DNA from: an uncultured bacterium
GTDB taxonomy: Bacteria > Babelota > Babeliae > Babelales > Babelaceae
Assembly: GCA_963713855.1 (NCBI GenBank)
Contig: OY970209.1
Location: 384,001-448,000 of the forward strand
Direction: 5' to 3'
DNA: 64,000 nt
Shown one piece after another: positions 11,521 to 63,423 of the stretch. Positions within the stretch are counted from its first letter, which is position 1. Each line of letters opens with the position of its first letter. The translations under genes and the position numbers were made by a program. The notes under the pieces were generated by a model. The model worked only from the letters and a program-made list of their open reading frames with translations, was not told the DNA's origin and ran no database searches.

Positions 11521-11585
11521 TCATCCGCGTTTTATCTACCTCTATTTCAAACGTACATAAATTTTTTTTTGTAAAAAGTTAGGTA

Positions 11586-11885
11586 TGTGGATAAGTGGTG
11601 GATAAGTGGTGGATAAGTGGTGGACAAAGTTTTAAGCACGTTTTGCGTAATACGTAACACAGACACCTTTGAGCATCATCTTAAAGGATTTGTTTGATCA
11701 CAAAGGAGATATAGGTGGAATAGGTTTAGGGGCTAAAAAGTTATCCACCACTTATCCACCACTTATCCACCACTTTTAATAGGGTCAAAAAGGCTTCTGG
11801 TAAAGGTTATAGCTCAAAGTTATCCACAAAAATCGTCGATACAACAACTATATATTAAATATAGATACTATGTATAAATATATAT
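11586..11885. other. Probable chromosomal replication origin oriC
   Basis: Perfect DnaA boxes TGTGGATAA (11586) and TTATCCACA (11820); near-consensus boxes at 11597, 11608, 11619 and, inverted, at 11741, 11752, 11763; trio-like TAC-AAC-AAC-TAT (11840-11851); AT-rich tract to 11885; local C>G to G>C switch. Confidence 0.8.
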
Positions 11886-21781: not shown

Positions 21782-21788
21782 CTCGGTT

Positions 21789-22067
21789 CAGTTCCCGAAT
21801 AAGAACGAGGGAAGCGTAAGCCTACGCGGCTGGCGGCAGGACATTGTCCTGCACCTGTTGCTTGTTTTGGTTCTTACATACTTATTGTGTATGAGATAGA
21901 CCGGTAAACCCGGTCTATCTCATTAGCACATATACCAGAAAGGGAACCCCTTTCTGGTATATCAAATCTACGTAAAAAGTTTAAGAAGGGTGTGGGTCAA
22001 TGGGTCATAAAGCCTGGGTCAAGGGCGAATGCCCTTGCGCTCGCCGCGTAGGCGCCTATTTCTCTTT
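21789..22067 (+). repeat. Structured palindromic repeat, copy 1 (core 21820-22053)
   Basis: Inverted ends GCCTACGCGGC/GCCGCGTAGGC, four internal hairpins; homologous to 34053-34306 and 46957-47294. Confidence 0.95.
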
Positions 22068-22089
22068 GGCTTAAGTTTAGGTAGCTTGT

Positions 22090-22815
22090 TTATTTTCTTC
22101 TTTCTAAGAGCGATCTGAGCATCCAAGCCATCTTTTCATGATCTACTAAGATTTCTTGTAAAAAGTTACTTGTTCCCATGTCGCGTCTTTTTTCTTCTGT
22201 GGTATTAATGCCTTGACGAATATGGCGTATAAGGACCTCCTGGTTGACGAGAAGATTATATACCATATCTTTTGGTGCAGGAATTGGCCCCATATCCTCT
22301 TTAATGTAACTGTGTTGGAGAAATTCGGTCATGGTGCCAAGCGCAACGCCGCCAACAGCGCGAACGCGCTCTGCAATGGCATCGACAAACTTTAATCCCT
22401 TTTCATAAAGATCTTGAAAAAGAATGTGGTAATCATGAAACTCTGGTCCAACAAGATTCCAATGGTATCCCCATTCTTGCAACGTTAAGGTAAATTCTGT
22501 AGCAAGAATTTTATTCAAAATATCTACAGATGCAGAAAGATCCTCTTTGGAAATGCCTATTTCAGGTTGTATCGTAGCCGTGATGCCATCTTGTTTTTTC
22601 ATAACGCTCCTTTGCTGCGGGATAAATAGTGCCTCGGGTTGACTGAATGTTTCAGGAGAAGGAGATCTGACAAAACGATGGTCTACCGAGTCCGGAATTG
22701 CCATACGTGTAACACCTTCATCGCTCCGTTGAGCAAGAAGTACAGAAATTATTCCTATTAAACCCACACTTCCTACGCAAAGTAGGACGCATAAGAATAT
22801 CTTGGGCTTTTGCAC
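22090..22815 (-). CDS. dps: Dps-family protein with N-terminal hydrophobic extension
   Basis: HWNLVGPEFHDYHILF and DAIAER ferroxidase motifs, EKMAWML; GTG start at 22815 after GGGAGAG. Confidence 0.85.
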   Translation of the reverse strand: MQKPKIFLCVLLCVGSVGLIGIISVLLAQRSDEGVTRMAIPDSVDHRFVRSPSPETFSQPEALFIPQQRSVMKKQDGITATIQPEIGISKEDLSASVDILNKILATEFTLTLQEWGYHWNLVGPEFHDYHILFQDLYEKGLKFVDAIAERVRAVGGVALGTMTEFLQHSYIKEDMGPIPAPKDMVYNLLVNQEVLIRHIRQGINTTEEKRRDMGTSNFLQEILVDHEKMAWMLRSLLERRK

Positions 22816-32942: not shown

Positions 32943-34049
32943 ATGTTTAGCACTTATAAAAAAAACAGAAGGAGAGCGTCAAAGCTCTCCTTCTGTTTTT
33001 TGAGTATATGCGCTGGTTTTTCTCAACTATTTCCCGGCGATTTTGCTAGTGCATTGAGAAAAAAAATCAAAAGAGACCCTCCGCCCTGGATGAGTGCGCA
33101 AATAGATACCGATTTAAGGCACTATAAAACTGGTATTACAAGAGCCGATATAGATGCTACCAAGTCTTCAATTATGTCTTATGCTCGTTGCAAGATAGGA
33201 GATAAGGGGATAACGATAGAAAGCAATGCCAAAAACGGTATTTCGCGCAATCGGCTAGATTTATTAAAAAGGGTCTTGCATAAGCTTCATAGGGCAGTAA
33301 AGCTTCCCAAACTCGATTTTTTAGTTGATCTTTTTGATGCGAGCGGATGTAAGGTAAAAAGAGCACCCGTTTTTTGTATCAGCAAGCATACCGACGATAC
33401 GCATGTAGTTCTAATGCCAGATTTCATAAAGTTTATGTGGGCTTCTACCTATATAAGTGACGTTTATCGGGGCAATAAGAGCTTTTCTTGGCATAGTAAA
33501 AAGCCACAAGCCTTGTGGCGGGGTTCGACGACTGGAGCGTTGGTTGATCATACGGATTTTGAACGTTTAAATCGTTCTAAATTGGTAGCACTTTCTCTTG
33601 AACATCCTAACCAGCTTAATGCACGTTTTTCTACAGTAACAAGGAATGATCGAAGGCTTGAAAAAATACTTAGGCAAAGGGGCATGTATAGCGATCATCT
33701 TTCTATGGCAGATCATCTTAAATATAAATATATACTCGCAGTTGACGGTAATACGTGGGCAAGTTCATATTTTTGGCAACTTTTTGGCAATTCTCTCATC
33801 TTAAAACAAGCCTCACCTTTTTCAGAGTGGTACCACGCAGCACTTAAAGCCTATACGCACTACGTGCCCTTTAATCGTGACCTGTCTGATCTTATAGAAC
33901 GTATTTCTTGGGCAAAAAAGAATGATAGAAAAGTGCGAGAGATAGTAAGGCAGGCTAACAACTTTGCTCGCTCGTATCTTAAAGAAGTAGATCTCTATTA
34001 CTATTTCTATCTGGCTCTGCGTGAGTACGAAAAGTTGCAGCGTTTCTAG
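32943..34049 (+). CDS. Glycosyltransferase family 90 (CAP10/KDELC-like)
   Basis: WRGSTTG, HLKYKYILAVDGN, EWYHAALKAYTHYVP motifs. Confidence 0.85.
   Translation: MFSTYKKNRRRASKLSFCFLSICAGFSQLFPGDFASALRKKIKRDPPPWMSAQIDTDLRHYKTGITRADIDATKSSIMSYARCKIGDKGITIESNAKNGISRNRLDLLKRVLHKLHRAVKLPKLDFLVDLFDASGCKVKRAPVFCISKHTDDTHVVLMPDFIKFMWASTYISDVYRGNKSFSWHSKKPQALWRGSTTGALVDHTDFERLNRSKLVALSLEHPNQLNARFSTVTRNDRRLEKILRQRGMYSDHLSMADHLKYKYILAVDGNTWASSYFWQLFGNSLILKQASPFSEWYHAALKAYTHYVPFNRDLSDLIERISWAKKNDRKVREIVRQANNFARSYLKEVDLYYYFYLALREYEKLQRF
32960..33001. terminator. Bidirectional intrinsic terminator after pal-like gene
   Basis: AAAAAACAGAAGGAGAGC-GTCAAA-GCTCTCCTTCTGTTTTTT. Confidence 0.8.
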
Positions 34050-34052
34050 GGA

Positions 34053-34306
34053 CTGTGCTCAAATAAAAATCAGGGAAAAATACGCCTACGCGGCTAGCGG
34101 CAGGACATTGTCCTGCACCTGTTGCTTCTTTTGCGTCTTACATAATTATTGTGTATGAGATAGACCGGTTCCGGTCTATCTCATTAGGCACATTTACCAG
34201 AAAAGGAAATCCCTTTCTGGTAAATTAAACAACCATAAAAAATTTAAGCAGGGTGTGGGTCAAGGGCGTCTGCCCTTGCGCCCGCCGCGTAGGCGTCTAT
34301 TTTCCT
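34053..34306 (+). repeat. Structured palindromic repeat, copy 2 (core 34084-34294)
   Basis: Same ends and hairpins as copy 1, with compensatory changes and a short internal deletion. Confidence 0.95.
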
Positions 34307-37514: not shown

Positions 37515-37687
37515 AACTTTTCCTTTTGGCTTAGGCTTTCTTTTAATTTAAAATAGACATAATATTGAAGTAAAGTATTTTATTTTGCTATCTTATTAAA
37601 AGAAAGGTTCTTCTTGAATAGAAATGCCTTCGTATTGGGCTTTGATAGCCTTTGAAAGATCTTAGAAAGAAAAAAAAGGAGATAGTA

Positions 37688-38038
37688 ATGAAAAAATTTT
37701 TAAGTTTAGCTTTTATCGGAGCTTTATTAAGCTCAGCGTCATTAGTTCGAGCAGTCGAGTTTGTATTTCATAATGACATGGATAAAGATGTAGTGCTTCA
37801 TCCAAACTATGATTCGACTCTTTGTACTACAAATCCGTTCAGAATTAACAAAAAATCATCCTACACTTTTGATGCCGGTAAGGCTTGTTACATGGTATTA
37901 AAATCTATAGATCTAACGGTGCCTGATAATCCTCACCTAATTGGTACTATAGATGACTTACCGCACGACATTTTTGGTAGTTATTCTATAACCATCAAAG
38001 AAGAAAACAACATGCTTACGGCAACTTTCAAGAAGTAA
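37688..38038 (+). CDS. Small exported protein, tandem paralog 1
   Basis: AAGGAG RBS; signal peptide; LTVPxNP and DLP motifs shared with the next two ORFs. Confidence 0.8.
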   Translation: MKKFLSLAFIGALLSSASLVRAVEFVFHNDMDKDVVLHPNYDSTLCTTNPFRINKKSSYTFDAGKACYMVLKSIDLTVPDNPHLIGTIDDLPHDIFGSYSITIKEENNMLTATFKK

Positions 38039-38192
38039 TGTTTTAAGTAGTTGAGTTAGGTCTATCTAGGCACTTTTTCGTTTTATCCGACCTTGATCTC
38101 TAATTTAAAAGGTGAGTTTGTAGTGTTGGATACTTGAGGGGTGAAGATATGACGGATTTAATTGGATCTAAACATACAAAAAGGAGATGGTA

Positions 38193-38555
38193 ATGAGTAA
38201 ATATGCCTTAGGTTTAGCTTTTATCGGAACTTTATTAGGCTCAGCGTCATTCGTTCAAGCTGACGATTTTACGTTTTACAACAAAACCGATAATGATGTA
38301 ATGGTTCATCCGAACTTCAGTTCGGACTATTGTAGTAATAATGCGCCGTCATTTATGGTGCCCAAAAAATCATCGCACCATTTTGATCCAGGGCAAACAG
38401 GGTGTTACCTATTATTAACATCCATGGACCTAACGGTTCCCGGTAATCCGCATCTTGTTGGCAACGTGCATGATTTACCCCGTGGTATGTTTGGCACCTA
38501 TTTTATATCGATTACTGAAGAGAACAACGCGCTTATTGGTAGTTTTAATAAGTAA
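38193..38555 (+). CDS. Small exported protein, tandem paralog 2
   Basis: AAGGAG RBS; signal peptide ending VQA; same motifs. Confidence 0.8.
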   Translation: MSKYALGLAFIGTLLGSASFVQADDFTFYNKTDNDVMVHPNFSSDYCSNNAPSFMVPKKSSHHFDPGQTGCYLLLTSMDLTVPGNPHLVGNVHDLPRGMFGTYFISITEENNALIGSFNK

Positions 38556-38767
38556 TATTTTAAATGGCTGAGTAGGCAGCTATTCAGCCGCTTCTTACTT
38601 TTTATCGACCTAGATCTGCGGTAAATAATTTGAAAGTTCATAGTGTTTGATATTTGAGAAGTTTGGAGGAAGATGATTTTTATTTAAGCCGCTTCTTTTG
38701 GCTTACCTTTCTGTTTAGTCGAAATAGAAATAATATTGAATTAAAATGTTTAAAGAAGGAGACGGCG

Positions 38768-39142
38768 ATGAATAACTATGCATTAAGTTTAGCTTTTATT
38801 GGAGTTTTATTAAGCTCGGTGTCTTTAGTTCAAGCGCGCGATATTGTGTTTTACAACCAAACCGATAAAGACGTGAAGGTTCGTCCGACCTACGACTCGG
38901 CTCGTTCGATGCACGACTTGTTGTATTGTAGCACGGTGCCATTTATAGTACCAAAAAAATCGTGGAAAGAGTTTCATGCAGGAAGTTGTTCCCAAGATCC
39001 GAAAGCCATATTTCTAACGGTGCCCGGCAATCCTCAGCTTTCTGGCTATGTACATGATTTACCACTAAGCAATTATGGCTCCCCCTATATAACCATTAAC
39101 GAGGAAAACAACGCAATTGCAGGTTACTCTGGTGTAACCTAG
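38768..39142 (+). CDS. Small exported protein, tandem paralog 3
   Basis: AAGGAG RBS; signal peptide ending VQA; same motifs. Confidence 0.8.
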   Translation: MNNYALSLAFIGVLLSSVSLVQARDIVFYNQTDKDVKVRPTYDSARSMHDLLYCSTVPFIVPKKSWKEFHAGSCSQDPKAIFLTVPGNPQLSGYVHDLPLSNYGSPYITINEENNAIAGYSGVT

Positions 39143-42490: not shown

Positions 42491-43639
42491 TTATTCAAAA
42501 AGTAGAGTTTGAGCGGTAATTTCAAAGTAAGCATTTGCGTTTGACGGCACTGTAGCGTTTTCAGTAACTTGAGGTATAAGTGGCATTTGTTGTTCTTGCT
42601 GCCCTGGCCAAGTGCTCATTATCTCATTTTGCAGTTTTTCAAGTCTTAAAAGCAATTCTTTTACGTCAATGCCGTGTTTTTTAGCATAAGCTTTTACGAT
42701 TTGCTTTTTAATCTTTTTCCACCCATATTTTACAAGATCTCTAAAGCGCTCATGATCTCTATGCAAGATGTCAGTAATGCTGTGACGATTAGGAAGCTCG
42801 TGATCGTGATAATAAACTCTACCCTGATTATCGACGCTTACGGCGTTGCCCATAGTCCAATATCCGGTGTAAGCGGTAAGACGTACCAGAGAAGTAAGAA
42901 TTTCTTCATCCAATGCTAGGGGCGACTCTGAAAGAGGCGTTAATGGTCCGAGATAAAGCTCTACTACAACGTAGTTTGTATCTTCAACTTCGAGCGGTCG
43001 ACCCGGTATATGTACTAAATGGGTTTCTGGTATATGAATGTTTGTTATACCGAAAGTGCGTAATGCTTCTCGGGCGCGTAGATAGATCATAGCCCGGCTT
43101 ATGTTCTGGTACACTCTGCCATACAAAGGCTCTGCGTTAAATCGCTGCCATTCTTCTTGGGTTAAGATGCGCCCATAAGGGGTGTTGCTTTTTGTCCAGT
43201 GACCCGCATCCATAGATGCTAAGGTGTCAACGACATTTTGACGAGAAATAGCTACTTTCGATCGTTTTATAACCCATGCATTATCAACGTTGATGATATA
43301 AGAATGTCGATTTTCAATAAGAGGTACGTTGTTATCGACGAGTTCTTTGTCGATACCGGCAGCAAGCGCTTTTCGTTCTTCTGCTGAACCCGTAAAGAAG
43401 ATCTCTAGATGATCTGCTCCAGAAAGTATATGACCGATACCGTATCTTTCGATGAAGCCTTCTATCTGGCCTCTTACGTCGGGATCAAGCAAAGCCTCTT
43501 TTTCAAGTAGTTCAAGAAGATTTGAAGATGTGATTTCCTCACCGTTATACGTGCCGTACGATTCTTCCTTGGGTTGATGCATCCCATAAGCTGTTGAACA
43601 TGCTATTAAAATGAAGGTTGCTATATATCTATAGTTCAT
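42491..43639 (-). CDS. Exported orphan protein, possible kinase-like fold (paralog B)
   Basis: Signal peptide MNYRYIATFILIACSTAYG; strong similarity to 43629..44816. Confidence 0.7.
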   Translation of the reverse strand: MNYRYIATFILIACSTAYGMHQPKEESYGTYNGEEITSSNLLELLEKEALLDPDVRGQIEGFIERYGIGHILSGADHLEIFFTGSAEERKALAAGIDKELVDNNVPLIENRHSYIINVDNAWVIKRSKVAISRQNVVDTLASMDAGHWTKSNTPYGRILTQEEWQRFNAEPLYGRVYQNISRAMIYLRAREALRTFGITNIHIPETHLVHIPGRPLEVEDTNYVVVELYLGPLTPLSESPLALDEEILTSLVRLTAYTGYWTMGNAVSVDNQGRVYYHDHELPNRHSITDILHRDHERFRDLVKYGWKKIKKQIVKAYAKKHGIDVKELLLRLEKLQNEIMSTWPGQQEQQMPLIPQVTENATVPSNANAYFEITAQTLLFE

Positions 43640-44816
43640 TACGTTCCTTAATGAGTTTTTGACTCTCAAGCTCGACGCCAGAAAGATCAGGTGTATGAGC
43701 AACATTTTCTTGTGTCGTAACATTTGTTGTATGCTCTTCTTGACTGGAAGCTTGACGCACCAGGCTATCCATTATCTCTTCCTCTAGAAGATGCAAATTA
43801 TCAAGAAGCTTCGTTCCATCCACCGTGTAACTTAAACCACAACTATTAATTGCTTTAACATAGATGTTAATAACTTGTTCTTCGAGTTGGAGCCACCCAT
43901 ATTTAACAAGGTTTCTAAAACGAACGTGATCTCTATGCAAGATATCGGTAATGCTGTGACGATTAGGAAGCTCGTGGTCATGATAATATACGCGTCCCAA
44001 GTTATCGACGCTTACAGCATCTCCCATTGTCCACCAGCCTGTGTAAGCGGTAAGGCGTACGAGTGAAGTGTGGACTTCTTCATCTATCGCAATCGCTGGA
44101 AAAAGAGCTAACGGCGTTAATTCTCCAACGTGGCGTTCAACAACAACGTAATTTCTATCCTCGACCTCATAAGGTCTTCCTGGAATATGTACCAGATGAG
44201 TTTCAGGTATGTGAATGTTCGAGATTCCTAGCTTTAGTAGTCCTTCGCGTGCTCTCAAATAAACCATCGCCCGACTAACATTTTGATAGATCCTGCCGTT
44301 AAAAGGTTCGGCGTTAAAACGTGACCATTCCTCTCGACTTAAGAGACGCAAATATTCGCCTGGGTCTTGGGTAAAGCTTGGCTGACCAATTGTTGCAAAT
44401 GTATCACAAACGTTTTGGCGACCAAGATGTACTTTTGAACGTTTTATTAACCATTTATTATCAACGTTAATGATAAAGGAATTGGGAGCCGCGATAAGTG
44501 GAATCTTTTTGTCTTTTAATTCGCTCTCTATATCATCTGCAAGTTTTGTGCGTTCTTCTTCAGTACCCGTGAAAAATAGTTCTTGGTGGTCTGCTCCGGA
44601 TAAGATATGTGCTATGCCAGATGTTTCAATAAATTCTTCTAAGCTCTTTCTTACTTGAGGATCAAGCGGTGCTTCTTTTTCAAGAAGTTCTAAAAGATTA
44701 AAGGGCGTAATTTCTTCATCTTGATAGGTACCATAAGAAACTTTTTTAGGTTGCTGCATACCCTGCGCTACTGTGAATGTTGCTAAAACAATTGCAGCTG
44801 CGTATCTGTAGTTCAT
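43629..44816 (-). CDS. Exported orphan protein, possible kinase-like fold (paralog A)
   Basis: Signal peptide MNYRYAAAIVLATFTVAQG; shared IHIPETHLVHIPGRP and GRVYYHDHELPNRHSITDILHRDH. Confidence 0.7.
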   Translation of the reverse strand: MNYRYAAAIVLATFTVAQGMQQPKKVSYGTYQDEEITPFNLLELLEKEAPLDPQVRKSLEEFIETSGIAHILSGADHQELFFTGTEEERTKLADDIESELKDKKIPLIAAPNSFIINVDNKWLIKRSKVHLGRQNVCDTFATIGQPSFTQDPGEYLRLLSREEWSRFNAEPFNGRIYQNVSRAMVYLRAREGLLKLGISNIHIPETHLVHIPGRPYEVEDRNYVVVERHVGELTPLALFPAIAIDEEVHTSLVRLTAYTGWWTMGDAVSVDNLGRVYYHDHELPNRHSITDILHRDHVRFRNLVKYGWLQLEEQVINIYVKAINSCGLSYTVDGTKLLDNLHLLEEEIMDSLVRQASSQEEHTTNVTTQENVAHTPDLSGVELESQKLIKERNEL

Positions 44817-46956: not shown

Positions 46957-47294
46957 AAAGAGAAATAGGCGCCTACGCGGCGAGCGGCAGGACCCTCCAC
47001 TAATCGCCCTCTGCGAGGGCTGTTGCGGACCAATCATGCCTTACTTGGCATGGTATGGTTCCTGCACCTGTTGCTTGTTTTGCATGTTACATACTTATTG
47101 TGTATGAGATAGACCGGAAAATCCGGTCTATCTCATTAGCACATATACCAGAAAGGGAACCCCTTTCTGGTATATTAAATAACCATAAAAAGTTTAAGAA
47201 GGGTGTGGGTCAATGGGTCATAAAGCCTGGGTCAAGGGCACGCCCTTGCGCTCGCCGCGTAGGCGTATTCTTCTCCCATTTTTATGTAGCACAG
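46957..47294 (+). repeat. Structured palindromic repeat, copy 3 (core 46971-47264)
   Basis: Same core as copy 1 plus an insertion of about 60 bp; outer flanks swapped and reverse-complemented. Confidence 0.95.
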
Positions 47295-47300
47295 AAAAAA

Positions 47301-63047: not shown

Positions 63048-63423
63048 TGGTGGAGGCGATGGGAATCGAACCCATGTCCGCAATACCTAGACCTTAAAGC
63101 ACTCCATGCTCAGTCCCTGGTTATACAGCGCATCTACCCCAAAGACAAGATCTGATGCACAGTCTTATTTTGTATAATATCAAGCTACAAAGCAAGAAAA
63201 CCTCACTTGATAGTCACATCTTATTACTACGAGTTGGCTCAATTGATGGACACATCAAGACAACAAGCGCTTAGTGCCCTTAGGCAAAAGCTGGGACAGC
63301 CATGCTGCTGCCCCCTACGGTATGTTCGCCGTTTATTGTTTAGATTCTTTTTTTACGAGCACTGAATCAAAGCTCGGCATGCACTCCAAGATTTCAATAC
63401 CACGTCGAAGCCAGTACGCCCCC
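63048..63423 (-). ncRNA. ssrA: tmRNA
   Basis: 5' GGGGGCGTACTGGCTTCGAC; 3' GGGTTCGATTCCCATCGCCTCCACCA; internal tag frame 63330-63280 GEHTVGGSSMAVPAFA-stop. Confidence 0.95.

Follow-up and report, generated by a model that had tools for sequence, protein, structure and literature searches.

The window analysed here is a stretch of 64,000 nucleotides in the 1.52-Mb, single-contig genome of an uncultured Babelaceae bacterium (G000). It contains three hairpin-rich intergenic elements, and their cores were confirmed where the original prediction had placed them (21820-22053, 34084-34294 and 46971-47264), each closed by GCCTACGCGGC/GCCGCGTAGGC and containing the predicted hairpins and loops; the compensatory pair change of copy 2 (ATTTAC/GTAAAT) is also present. 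Two points of that description needed amending: the cores were right, but the element also runs some 35-40 bp past each core end, and the hairpins are all there, but the first hairpin of copy 3 is opened by a 65-nt insert that is common to three other copies. The features, including the likely replication origin that serves as our polarity reference, are the following (window coordinates).

11582..11765, no strand: a likely oriC where the GC skew is lowest, with two opposed arrays of DnaA-box-like 9-mers; outside the element
21785..21818, plus strand: copy 1, decayed shell end B immediately 3' of the aspS stop codon, probably derived from the left terminus of an IS427-like IS
21820..22053, plus strand: copy 1, core, consisting of head, hairpin H1, spacer, H2 (14 bp), H3 (15 bp), spacer, H4 and inverted head
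22055..22091, minus strand: copy 1, shell end A, probably an IS right end, reading I-S-L-W-L like a transposase C-terminus; its outer TIR has decayed and its outer boundary is approximate
34047..34082, plus strand: copy 2, TA target (within the TAG stop codon of a GT90 gene) and shell end B from 34049
34084..34294, plus strand: copy 2, core, shortest form; end A missing; abuts the native mnmE stop codon
46930..46969, plus strand: copy 3, TA target with shell end A at the left; the shell is turned round with respect to copies 1 and 2, with core direction unchanged
46971..47264, plus strand: copy 3, core with the 65-nt two-hairpin insert in the H1 loop; flanked by pth and priA
47266..47299, minus strand: copy 3, decayed shell end B, matched weakly by the profile (E 0.098)

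The core of copy 1 lies between the convergent aspS and ferritin-like genes. At the orthologous gap of the same-genus genome G001 (G001:C2:703730-703999, L462:3730-3999) there is a single-copy tmRNA-like sequence (57 bits), and the tmRNA of G000 itself is found at window positions 63048-63423. None of the 30 window ORFs (out of 66) that were scanned with Pfam looked like a transposase, which bears out the prediction of a transposase-free window to that extent. Elsewhere in the window there are three tandem small ORFs (37536-39142; 64-72% DNA identity) and two tandem paralogous ORFs (42491-44816; 77%), all without a Pfam family.

While three copies is the correct number for the window, a genome-wide BLAST search found 21 in G000, and a profile search for a 22nd found none. 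The element is non-coding and multicopy, sits at lineage-specific sites and measures about 290-370 bp where both ends are readable, with a hairpin core of 210-310 bp. Two heads, forming an inverted, intergenic, hairpin-forming doublet, are present in 20 of the 21 copies. Using gene calls from a simple ORF caller, we found 11/21 copies in convergent gene gaps, compared to 19% of gene pairs (p=0.0006); the siblings in G001, described below, show the same tendency (17/50, p=0.012). The origin-proximal quarter of the chromosome also holds 11 of the 21 copies (p=0.006).

Outside the inner repeat, each copy has two unlike conserved ends, A (~40 bp) and B (~36 bp), which resemble one another in their outer parts and both start after TA. 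At least one of these shell ends is kept in all 21 copies, as recognised by profile or by eye; since the profiles were trained on the same 21 copies, such matches show mutual likeness only. Among 41 genomes of the family, a pattern made from the G000 ends alone had a single exact match outside G000, at the left end of an 809-bp IS in G001 that carries a DUF4096 ORF and a DDE ORF and has TA on both sides; a plasmid relative of this IS is annotated as IS5. The G001 IS scores 28.2 bits against end B, and its right end, which was not in the search pattern, fits end A with 18.1 bits (best of 1500 random windows, 10.7). No other locus among the 39 related ones fits both ends; the G001 IS is 49-68% identical to the A ends and 50-82% to the B ends, and its first ORF is cut short. 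Most of the 18 readable A ends translate as I/L/V-S/T/P/F-L-x-L/I, where the G001 IS has I-L-L-W-L.

TA flanks both sides in 19 of the 20 related IS loci with both ends found. In the element itself CTAG stands at the expected place in 8/20 A ends and 8/20 B ends, against about 2% by chance; most outer ends have decayed, so that a TA duplication is unreadable at most copies. The accessible text of PMC3281130 gives IS427 elements as 832-865 bp long with mostly 2-bp repeats, and the G001 IS, with its size near 850 bp, its two ORFs (DUF4096 and DDE) and its 2-bp TA flanks, is IS427-like by these standards. In G000, whose marker-based completeness is 91%, neither tblastn nor a genome search found an IS5 transposase or any remnant ORF. 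Taken together, the likeness of the ends indicates that the element is likely an IS5/IS427-derived MITE, non-coding and now fossil, its transposase lost; the predicted non-autonomous mobile element is thereby supported and given a family by its ends. Profile searches of G000 found no empty shell, and no core among the 21 copies is without any shell end. A lone 41-bp remnant at G000:C1:1237985-1238025, without core or transposase, matches the right end of the G001 IS5 at 80% identity. Two other sets of matches to the IS-end pattern were set aside: 23 viral matches had no transposase, and a match in G159 lies inside a coding region.

The core has a distribution of its own. It opens with a head of ~18 nt, GCCT-N-CGCGGC-NN-GCGGC, followed by a hairpin with a CACCC-type tail. 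Head and hairpin together are multicopy in 6 genomes out of 261 in the class and were matched once in each of three more; among the matches listed, they also occur in records labelled Planctomycetota, Clostridia, Binatota/delta proteobacteria, Chloroflexota, Myxococcota, Actinomycetes and Acidiferrales. G001, of which 1.593 of 1.601 Mb was covered, has 50 siblings with the same layout, wholly different hairpin sequences and no IS ends. Three early matches had suggested that G000 and G001 share orthologous insertion sites; the genome-wide comparison ruled this out, with one of 34 testable gene-end sites in common where 1.76 were expected. Two of the G000 sites are short empty gaps in G001, too diverged to show a junction. 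Two Binatota genomes provide a clean 116-bp filled/empty pair with no shell. The 50 shell-less siblings of G001 and this Binatota pair imply that the core family disperses elsewhere without IS5. As judged by its sequence, therefore, the core is a member of a separate, widespread repeat family and not IS-derived.

Several observations on related sequences may be recorded here. A plasmid search with copy 3 gave no match. For a Planctomycete sibling, matches to 26-nt hairpins turned up on a small plasmid, on small replicons in phage records and on phage phiLF; these hairpins may resemble the ColE1 oriT hairpin. Twelve viral matches to the head mostly lack the hairpin and look like chance. Heads form tandem arrays at L094:757-882, L112, L142, L151 and L171, with six 25-nt units in G052 and up to eight 40-41-nt head-and-hairpin units in one Clostridiaceae genome. 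In an actinobacterial-type subfamily (L264-L375, from soil metagenomes, and L131), head and hairpin lie within a longer conserved element. In G209, six contig ends (L103-L106) carry a head variant with a common 50-nt flank, which marks an unassembled repeat. G009 (L002, L004, L006, L008, L010, L012) has a different multicopy hairpin family, which contains the 23-25-nt H4 hairpin word and not the head.

An inverted doublet of GC-rich repeats in intergenic DNA suggests a REPIN, and the original prediction had named this class among others. The architecture does agree, and the G000 head has GTAG on one strand. If the core were an ordinary GTAG-type REP or REPIN moved by RAYT, or an SRM repeat served by the GIY-YIG nuclease Ssn, one would look for the tag and for the partner gene, and we searched for both. 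The base completing GTAG is not constant from genome to genome (G 130, A 30, C 9, T 1), and the motif does not stand at the hairpin's 5' foot; the conserved GT(A/G)G that PMC6006769 gives for this foot was not found. Five words searched in the accessible part of the REP table of PMC6006769 did not recover the head. There is no Y1/HUH gene in G000; Y1 genes are present in G001, G052, G262 and G008, in no case with flanking heads, and none was found in G051, G261, G263 and G264. Three TnpB-like (Cas12f1-like) genes or remnants exist in G000 (G000:C1:557315-557511, 812991-813137 and 1386662-1386862), in a genome with no Y1 transposase, and no head was found at these three loci.

The search for other partners was equally negative. 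The recurrent neighbouring proteins of 80 GTDB loci, of 12 viral loci and of the longer of 58 metagenome head-and-hairpin loci were only host genes or translations of the repeat, 52 lineage-specific neighbours in G001 included no head-bracketed nuclease, and in G001 an ISAs1-type fragment and an rve fragment each adjoin single elements. No DUF559, PDDEXK_3, GIY-YIG or Y1 gene is head-flanked in 7-9 element-bearing genomes, and in none of the sets examined is a gene bracketed by heads. Among 22 GIY-YIG loci in nine genomes, none is a small GIY-YIG gene flanked by CGTC-type hairpins; one small gene has a single head upstream, and its orthologue has no head. The SRM consensus, as given in the accessible text of PMC11893778, is of a CGTC type and unlike our head. 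We regard the RAYT or Ssn explanation as largely refuted and very improbable.

The element has two layers, its core stands either way round within the shell, and its copies are mosaics. In the 20 complete copies, end A is at the 5' side of the core in 13 and end B in 7. Hairpin modules are gained and lost among copies, and incompatibility between variable sites grows with distance (39/187 near, 371/810 far; 0/5000 permutations), as expected from exchange between copies, although agreement between near sites is inflated by multi-base events. An identical 150-nt core is present in two copies that lie 306 kb from each other and whose shells are 53% identical; core and shell similarity are uncorrelated (rho -0.09), and cores are 89-94% like their consensus compared to 69-77% for shells.

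The second property of the core that sets it apart from the shell is its orientation relative to replication. The GC-skew minimum of the chromosome (position 395,551) coincides with arrays of DnaA-box-like words, identified with the DnaA-box consensus, and the same coincidence is seen in G001; the direction of the rRNA operon agrees with this origin assignment. The dnaA gene is ~620 kb from the likely oriC round the chromosome, and the design of oriC is the same in G001. We found the core along the replichore in 19/21 copies (p=0.0002), one of these 19 being only 0.5 kb from the skew maximum (terminus) and hence of uncertain replichore, whereas shell orientation relative to the replichore is 8:13 (p=0.38). 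Cores are aligned in 12 of 13 A-first and 7 of 8 B-first copies, which fits random insertion followed by directional inversion: since the core follows the replichore and the shell does not, the core was likely turned round after insertion. By standard fork geometry, the strand shown in the window would usually be the lagging-strand template.

The same polarity is present, more weakly, in G001, where 40 of the 50 copies could be oriented and 26-28 of these are aligned (p=0.017-0.08, depending on the window chosen). In G052, 11 of 15 copies are aligned (p=0.12), including all seven near-complete ones, a split that was made post hoc; G051 has three copies. A Binatota chromosome has no pattern in its 17 heads, with strands interleaved. 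Gene direction does not substitute for replication: between tandem genes the core follows the gene in 2/5 cases in G000 and 8/17 in G001, and the gene-strand bias of G000 is slight (546 vs 494). The polarity is an observation on the replichores; its cause, which we would place at the fork and which may lie in flip rate, fork stalling or priming, is a matter of interpretation. According to the part of PMC3971601 available to us, IS200-type elements have a chromosome-wide orientation bias tied to the fork, and most IS5 subfamilies in that survey are without one.

The original prediction had rested on the fold, and the fold is strong. Relative to shuffles, the cores give z values of -9.4 and -11.8 as RNA, -10.8 for the other strand and -9.5 as DNA. 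In H2 and H3, 9 of 29 pairs are changed on both sides, as against 0/500 shuffles and 0-3 in slid controls. For the claim that selection acts on the fold, the covariation passes its shuffle control, but the loops and insertions carry the marks of another process. The loops do differ between copies, as predicted, and several are reverse complements of one another (AAAAT/ATTTT, AAC/GTT, AACT/AGTT); in two copies, insertions are mirrored on both arms. The accessible portion of PMC8794818 ascribes two-sided Watson-Crick changes, mirrored insertions and flipped loops to template switching. Given the loop inversions and mirrored insertions, stem covariation is no proof of selection, and the two marks point to copying of one arm onto the other at the DNA level rather than to selection as RNA. 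Single stem mismatches in G000 are balanced (G.T 4 vs A.C 5). In G001, most of 40 copies retain a mismatch in one of the hairpins, A.C 40 vs G.T 8 on one strand, counts that are not independent since the copies bearing the mismatch are related; its persistence counts against arm copying alone, which should erase mismatches.

Could the core nevertheless be kept as RNA, whether as a multicopy ncRNA, as the original prediction had offered, or as a two-way terminator or mRNA-stabilising 3' structure? Apart from the two-sided pair changes, such a role would account for the excess in convergent gaps in both genomes, for the conservation of unpaired core stretches (89-91%) and for the G.T-compatible asymmetry of the G001 hairpin. 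However, no Rfam family other than tmRNA and tRNA matched in the window, and ten element loci searched at E<=1 gave no relevant match. The two strands of the core fold alike, and inside copy 1 there is neither a promoter-like site nor a terminator with a U tail. In G001, transcription of the G.T-friendly strand would run head-on against the fork. G000 and G001 have wholly unlike hairpin sequences and do not share their sites, and the orientation tracks replication and not the neighbouring genes, with no better agreement in tandem genes than the counts given above. We consider selection as RNA improbable, and the ncRNA assignment is not supported. An RNA role may add to retention at convergent genes; it does not explain the polarity.

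The reading that we favour, with a probability of roughly 0.6, is that IS5-family (IS427-like) ends enclose a hairpin core of a separate family, that the composite spread as a MITE whose transposase was then lost, and that the cores were afterwards converted, arm-corrected and inverted with a bias tied to the fork. One core would have replaced the interior of an IS427-like IS, and a transposase acting in trans would have put the composite at TA sites in random orientation. The transposase would later have been lost from the genome and the shell would have decayed, while cores kept being copied between loci by gene conversion and from arm to arm by template switching, and were inverted between the inverted heads. 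Either inversion or retention would have been biased, such that one core strand is the lagging-strand template, single-stranded at the fork.

A different order of events would start with empty IS5 MITE shells, into which the cores entered later by a single-strand, lagging-strand-targeting route of their own, REPIN-like or IS200-like; polarity would then be set at insertion, and cores replaced, not flipped. This order explains the polarity well, and also that cores are younger than the shells around them and that the same core can occur in dissimilar shells; it draws further strength from the independent dispersal of shell-less relatives (the 50 in G001 and the 116-bp Binatota pair) and from the orientation bias of IS200-type elements (PMC3971601, in its accessible part). 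It also predicts empty shells, and there are none, nor is there a shell-less core, among the 21 copies. It further requires a strict target usable in either orientation, and a partner enzyme, for which G000 offers no Y1/HUH gene and the sets examined no head-bracketed gene. We consider late entry of the cores rather unlikely, although less so than a role as RNA. We would suggest, tentatively and at odds well short of even, that head and hairpin constitute an undescribed, multi-phylum, single-strand DNA element that senses the fork and, via some enzyme, inserts or re-orients itself so that one of its strands becomes the lagging-strand template. G000 would record this fork reading cleanly because the IS5 shell, which is oriented at random, preserves the direction in which each copy first inserted.

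The arrangement is of interest in several respects. One repeat family rides within the ends of an unrelated transposon, and this provides a built-in control, the shell giving the direction of landing and the core the final direction. A 19/21 bias confined to the core would imply strand-dependent sorting of hairpin DNA at the fork once it has inserted. Several phyla carry the head repeat, and no partner enzyme is known for it. For ncRNA discovery there is a caution in that strong covariation was accompanied by flipped loops and mirrored insertions. In a literature search that left most subscription papers outside its coverage, we found no description of a replichore-polarised MITE core, of a polarised core in an unpolarised shell or of the present repeat.

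How does the element compare with known systems? MITEs derived from DDE ISs, such as Correia and ERIC, are, as far as the accessible text of PMC10969869 describes them, likewise short, non-coding, multicopy and intergenic, with IS-matching ends, a modular interior, TA at the ends and a frequent position at gene 3' ends; inversion of Correia is reported in the same text. The interior of the present element differs in coming from another repeat family with inverted ends of its own and not from the IS, and in that it likely inverts within the shell, is exchanged between copies and is replichore-polarised, whereas the shell is not. With REP, REPIN and BIME sequences and their RAYT (accessible parts of PMC3116915, PMC3733652 and PMC6006769), the core shares an inverted pair of GC-rich hairpins closing a long stem, and both belong to families that span many phyla and occur as singlets, doublets and tandem arrays; the core has no conserved GT(A/G)G foot or CGTC tag, and no RAYT partner was found.

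IS200/IS605 elements (PMC3971601, same part) also combine a fork-tied, chromosome-wide orientation with hairpin-rich single-strand structure; here, there is no Y1 transposase, and the bias is on the cargo and not on the transposed ends. Template-switch hairpin repair (PMC8794818) shares the two-sided Watson-Crick changes, the mirrored insertions and the flipped loops, and inversion between IS terminal repeats in Wolbachia (PMC3004938) similarly turns an interior round between inverted repeats; the accessible parts of these two papers describe no bias of either process to one replichore orientation. Set against these systems, the element is most likely an IS5-derived MITE that carries an undescribed REPIN-like cargo with replication polarity.
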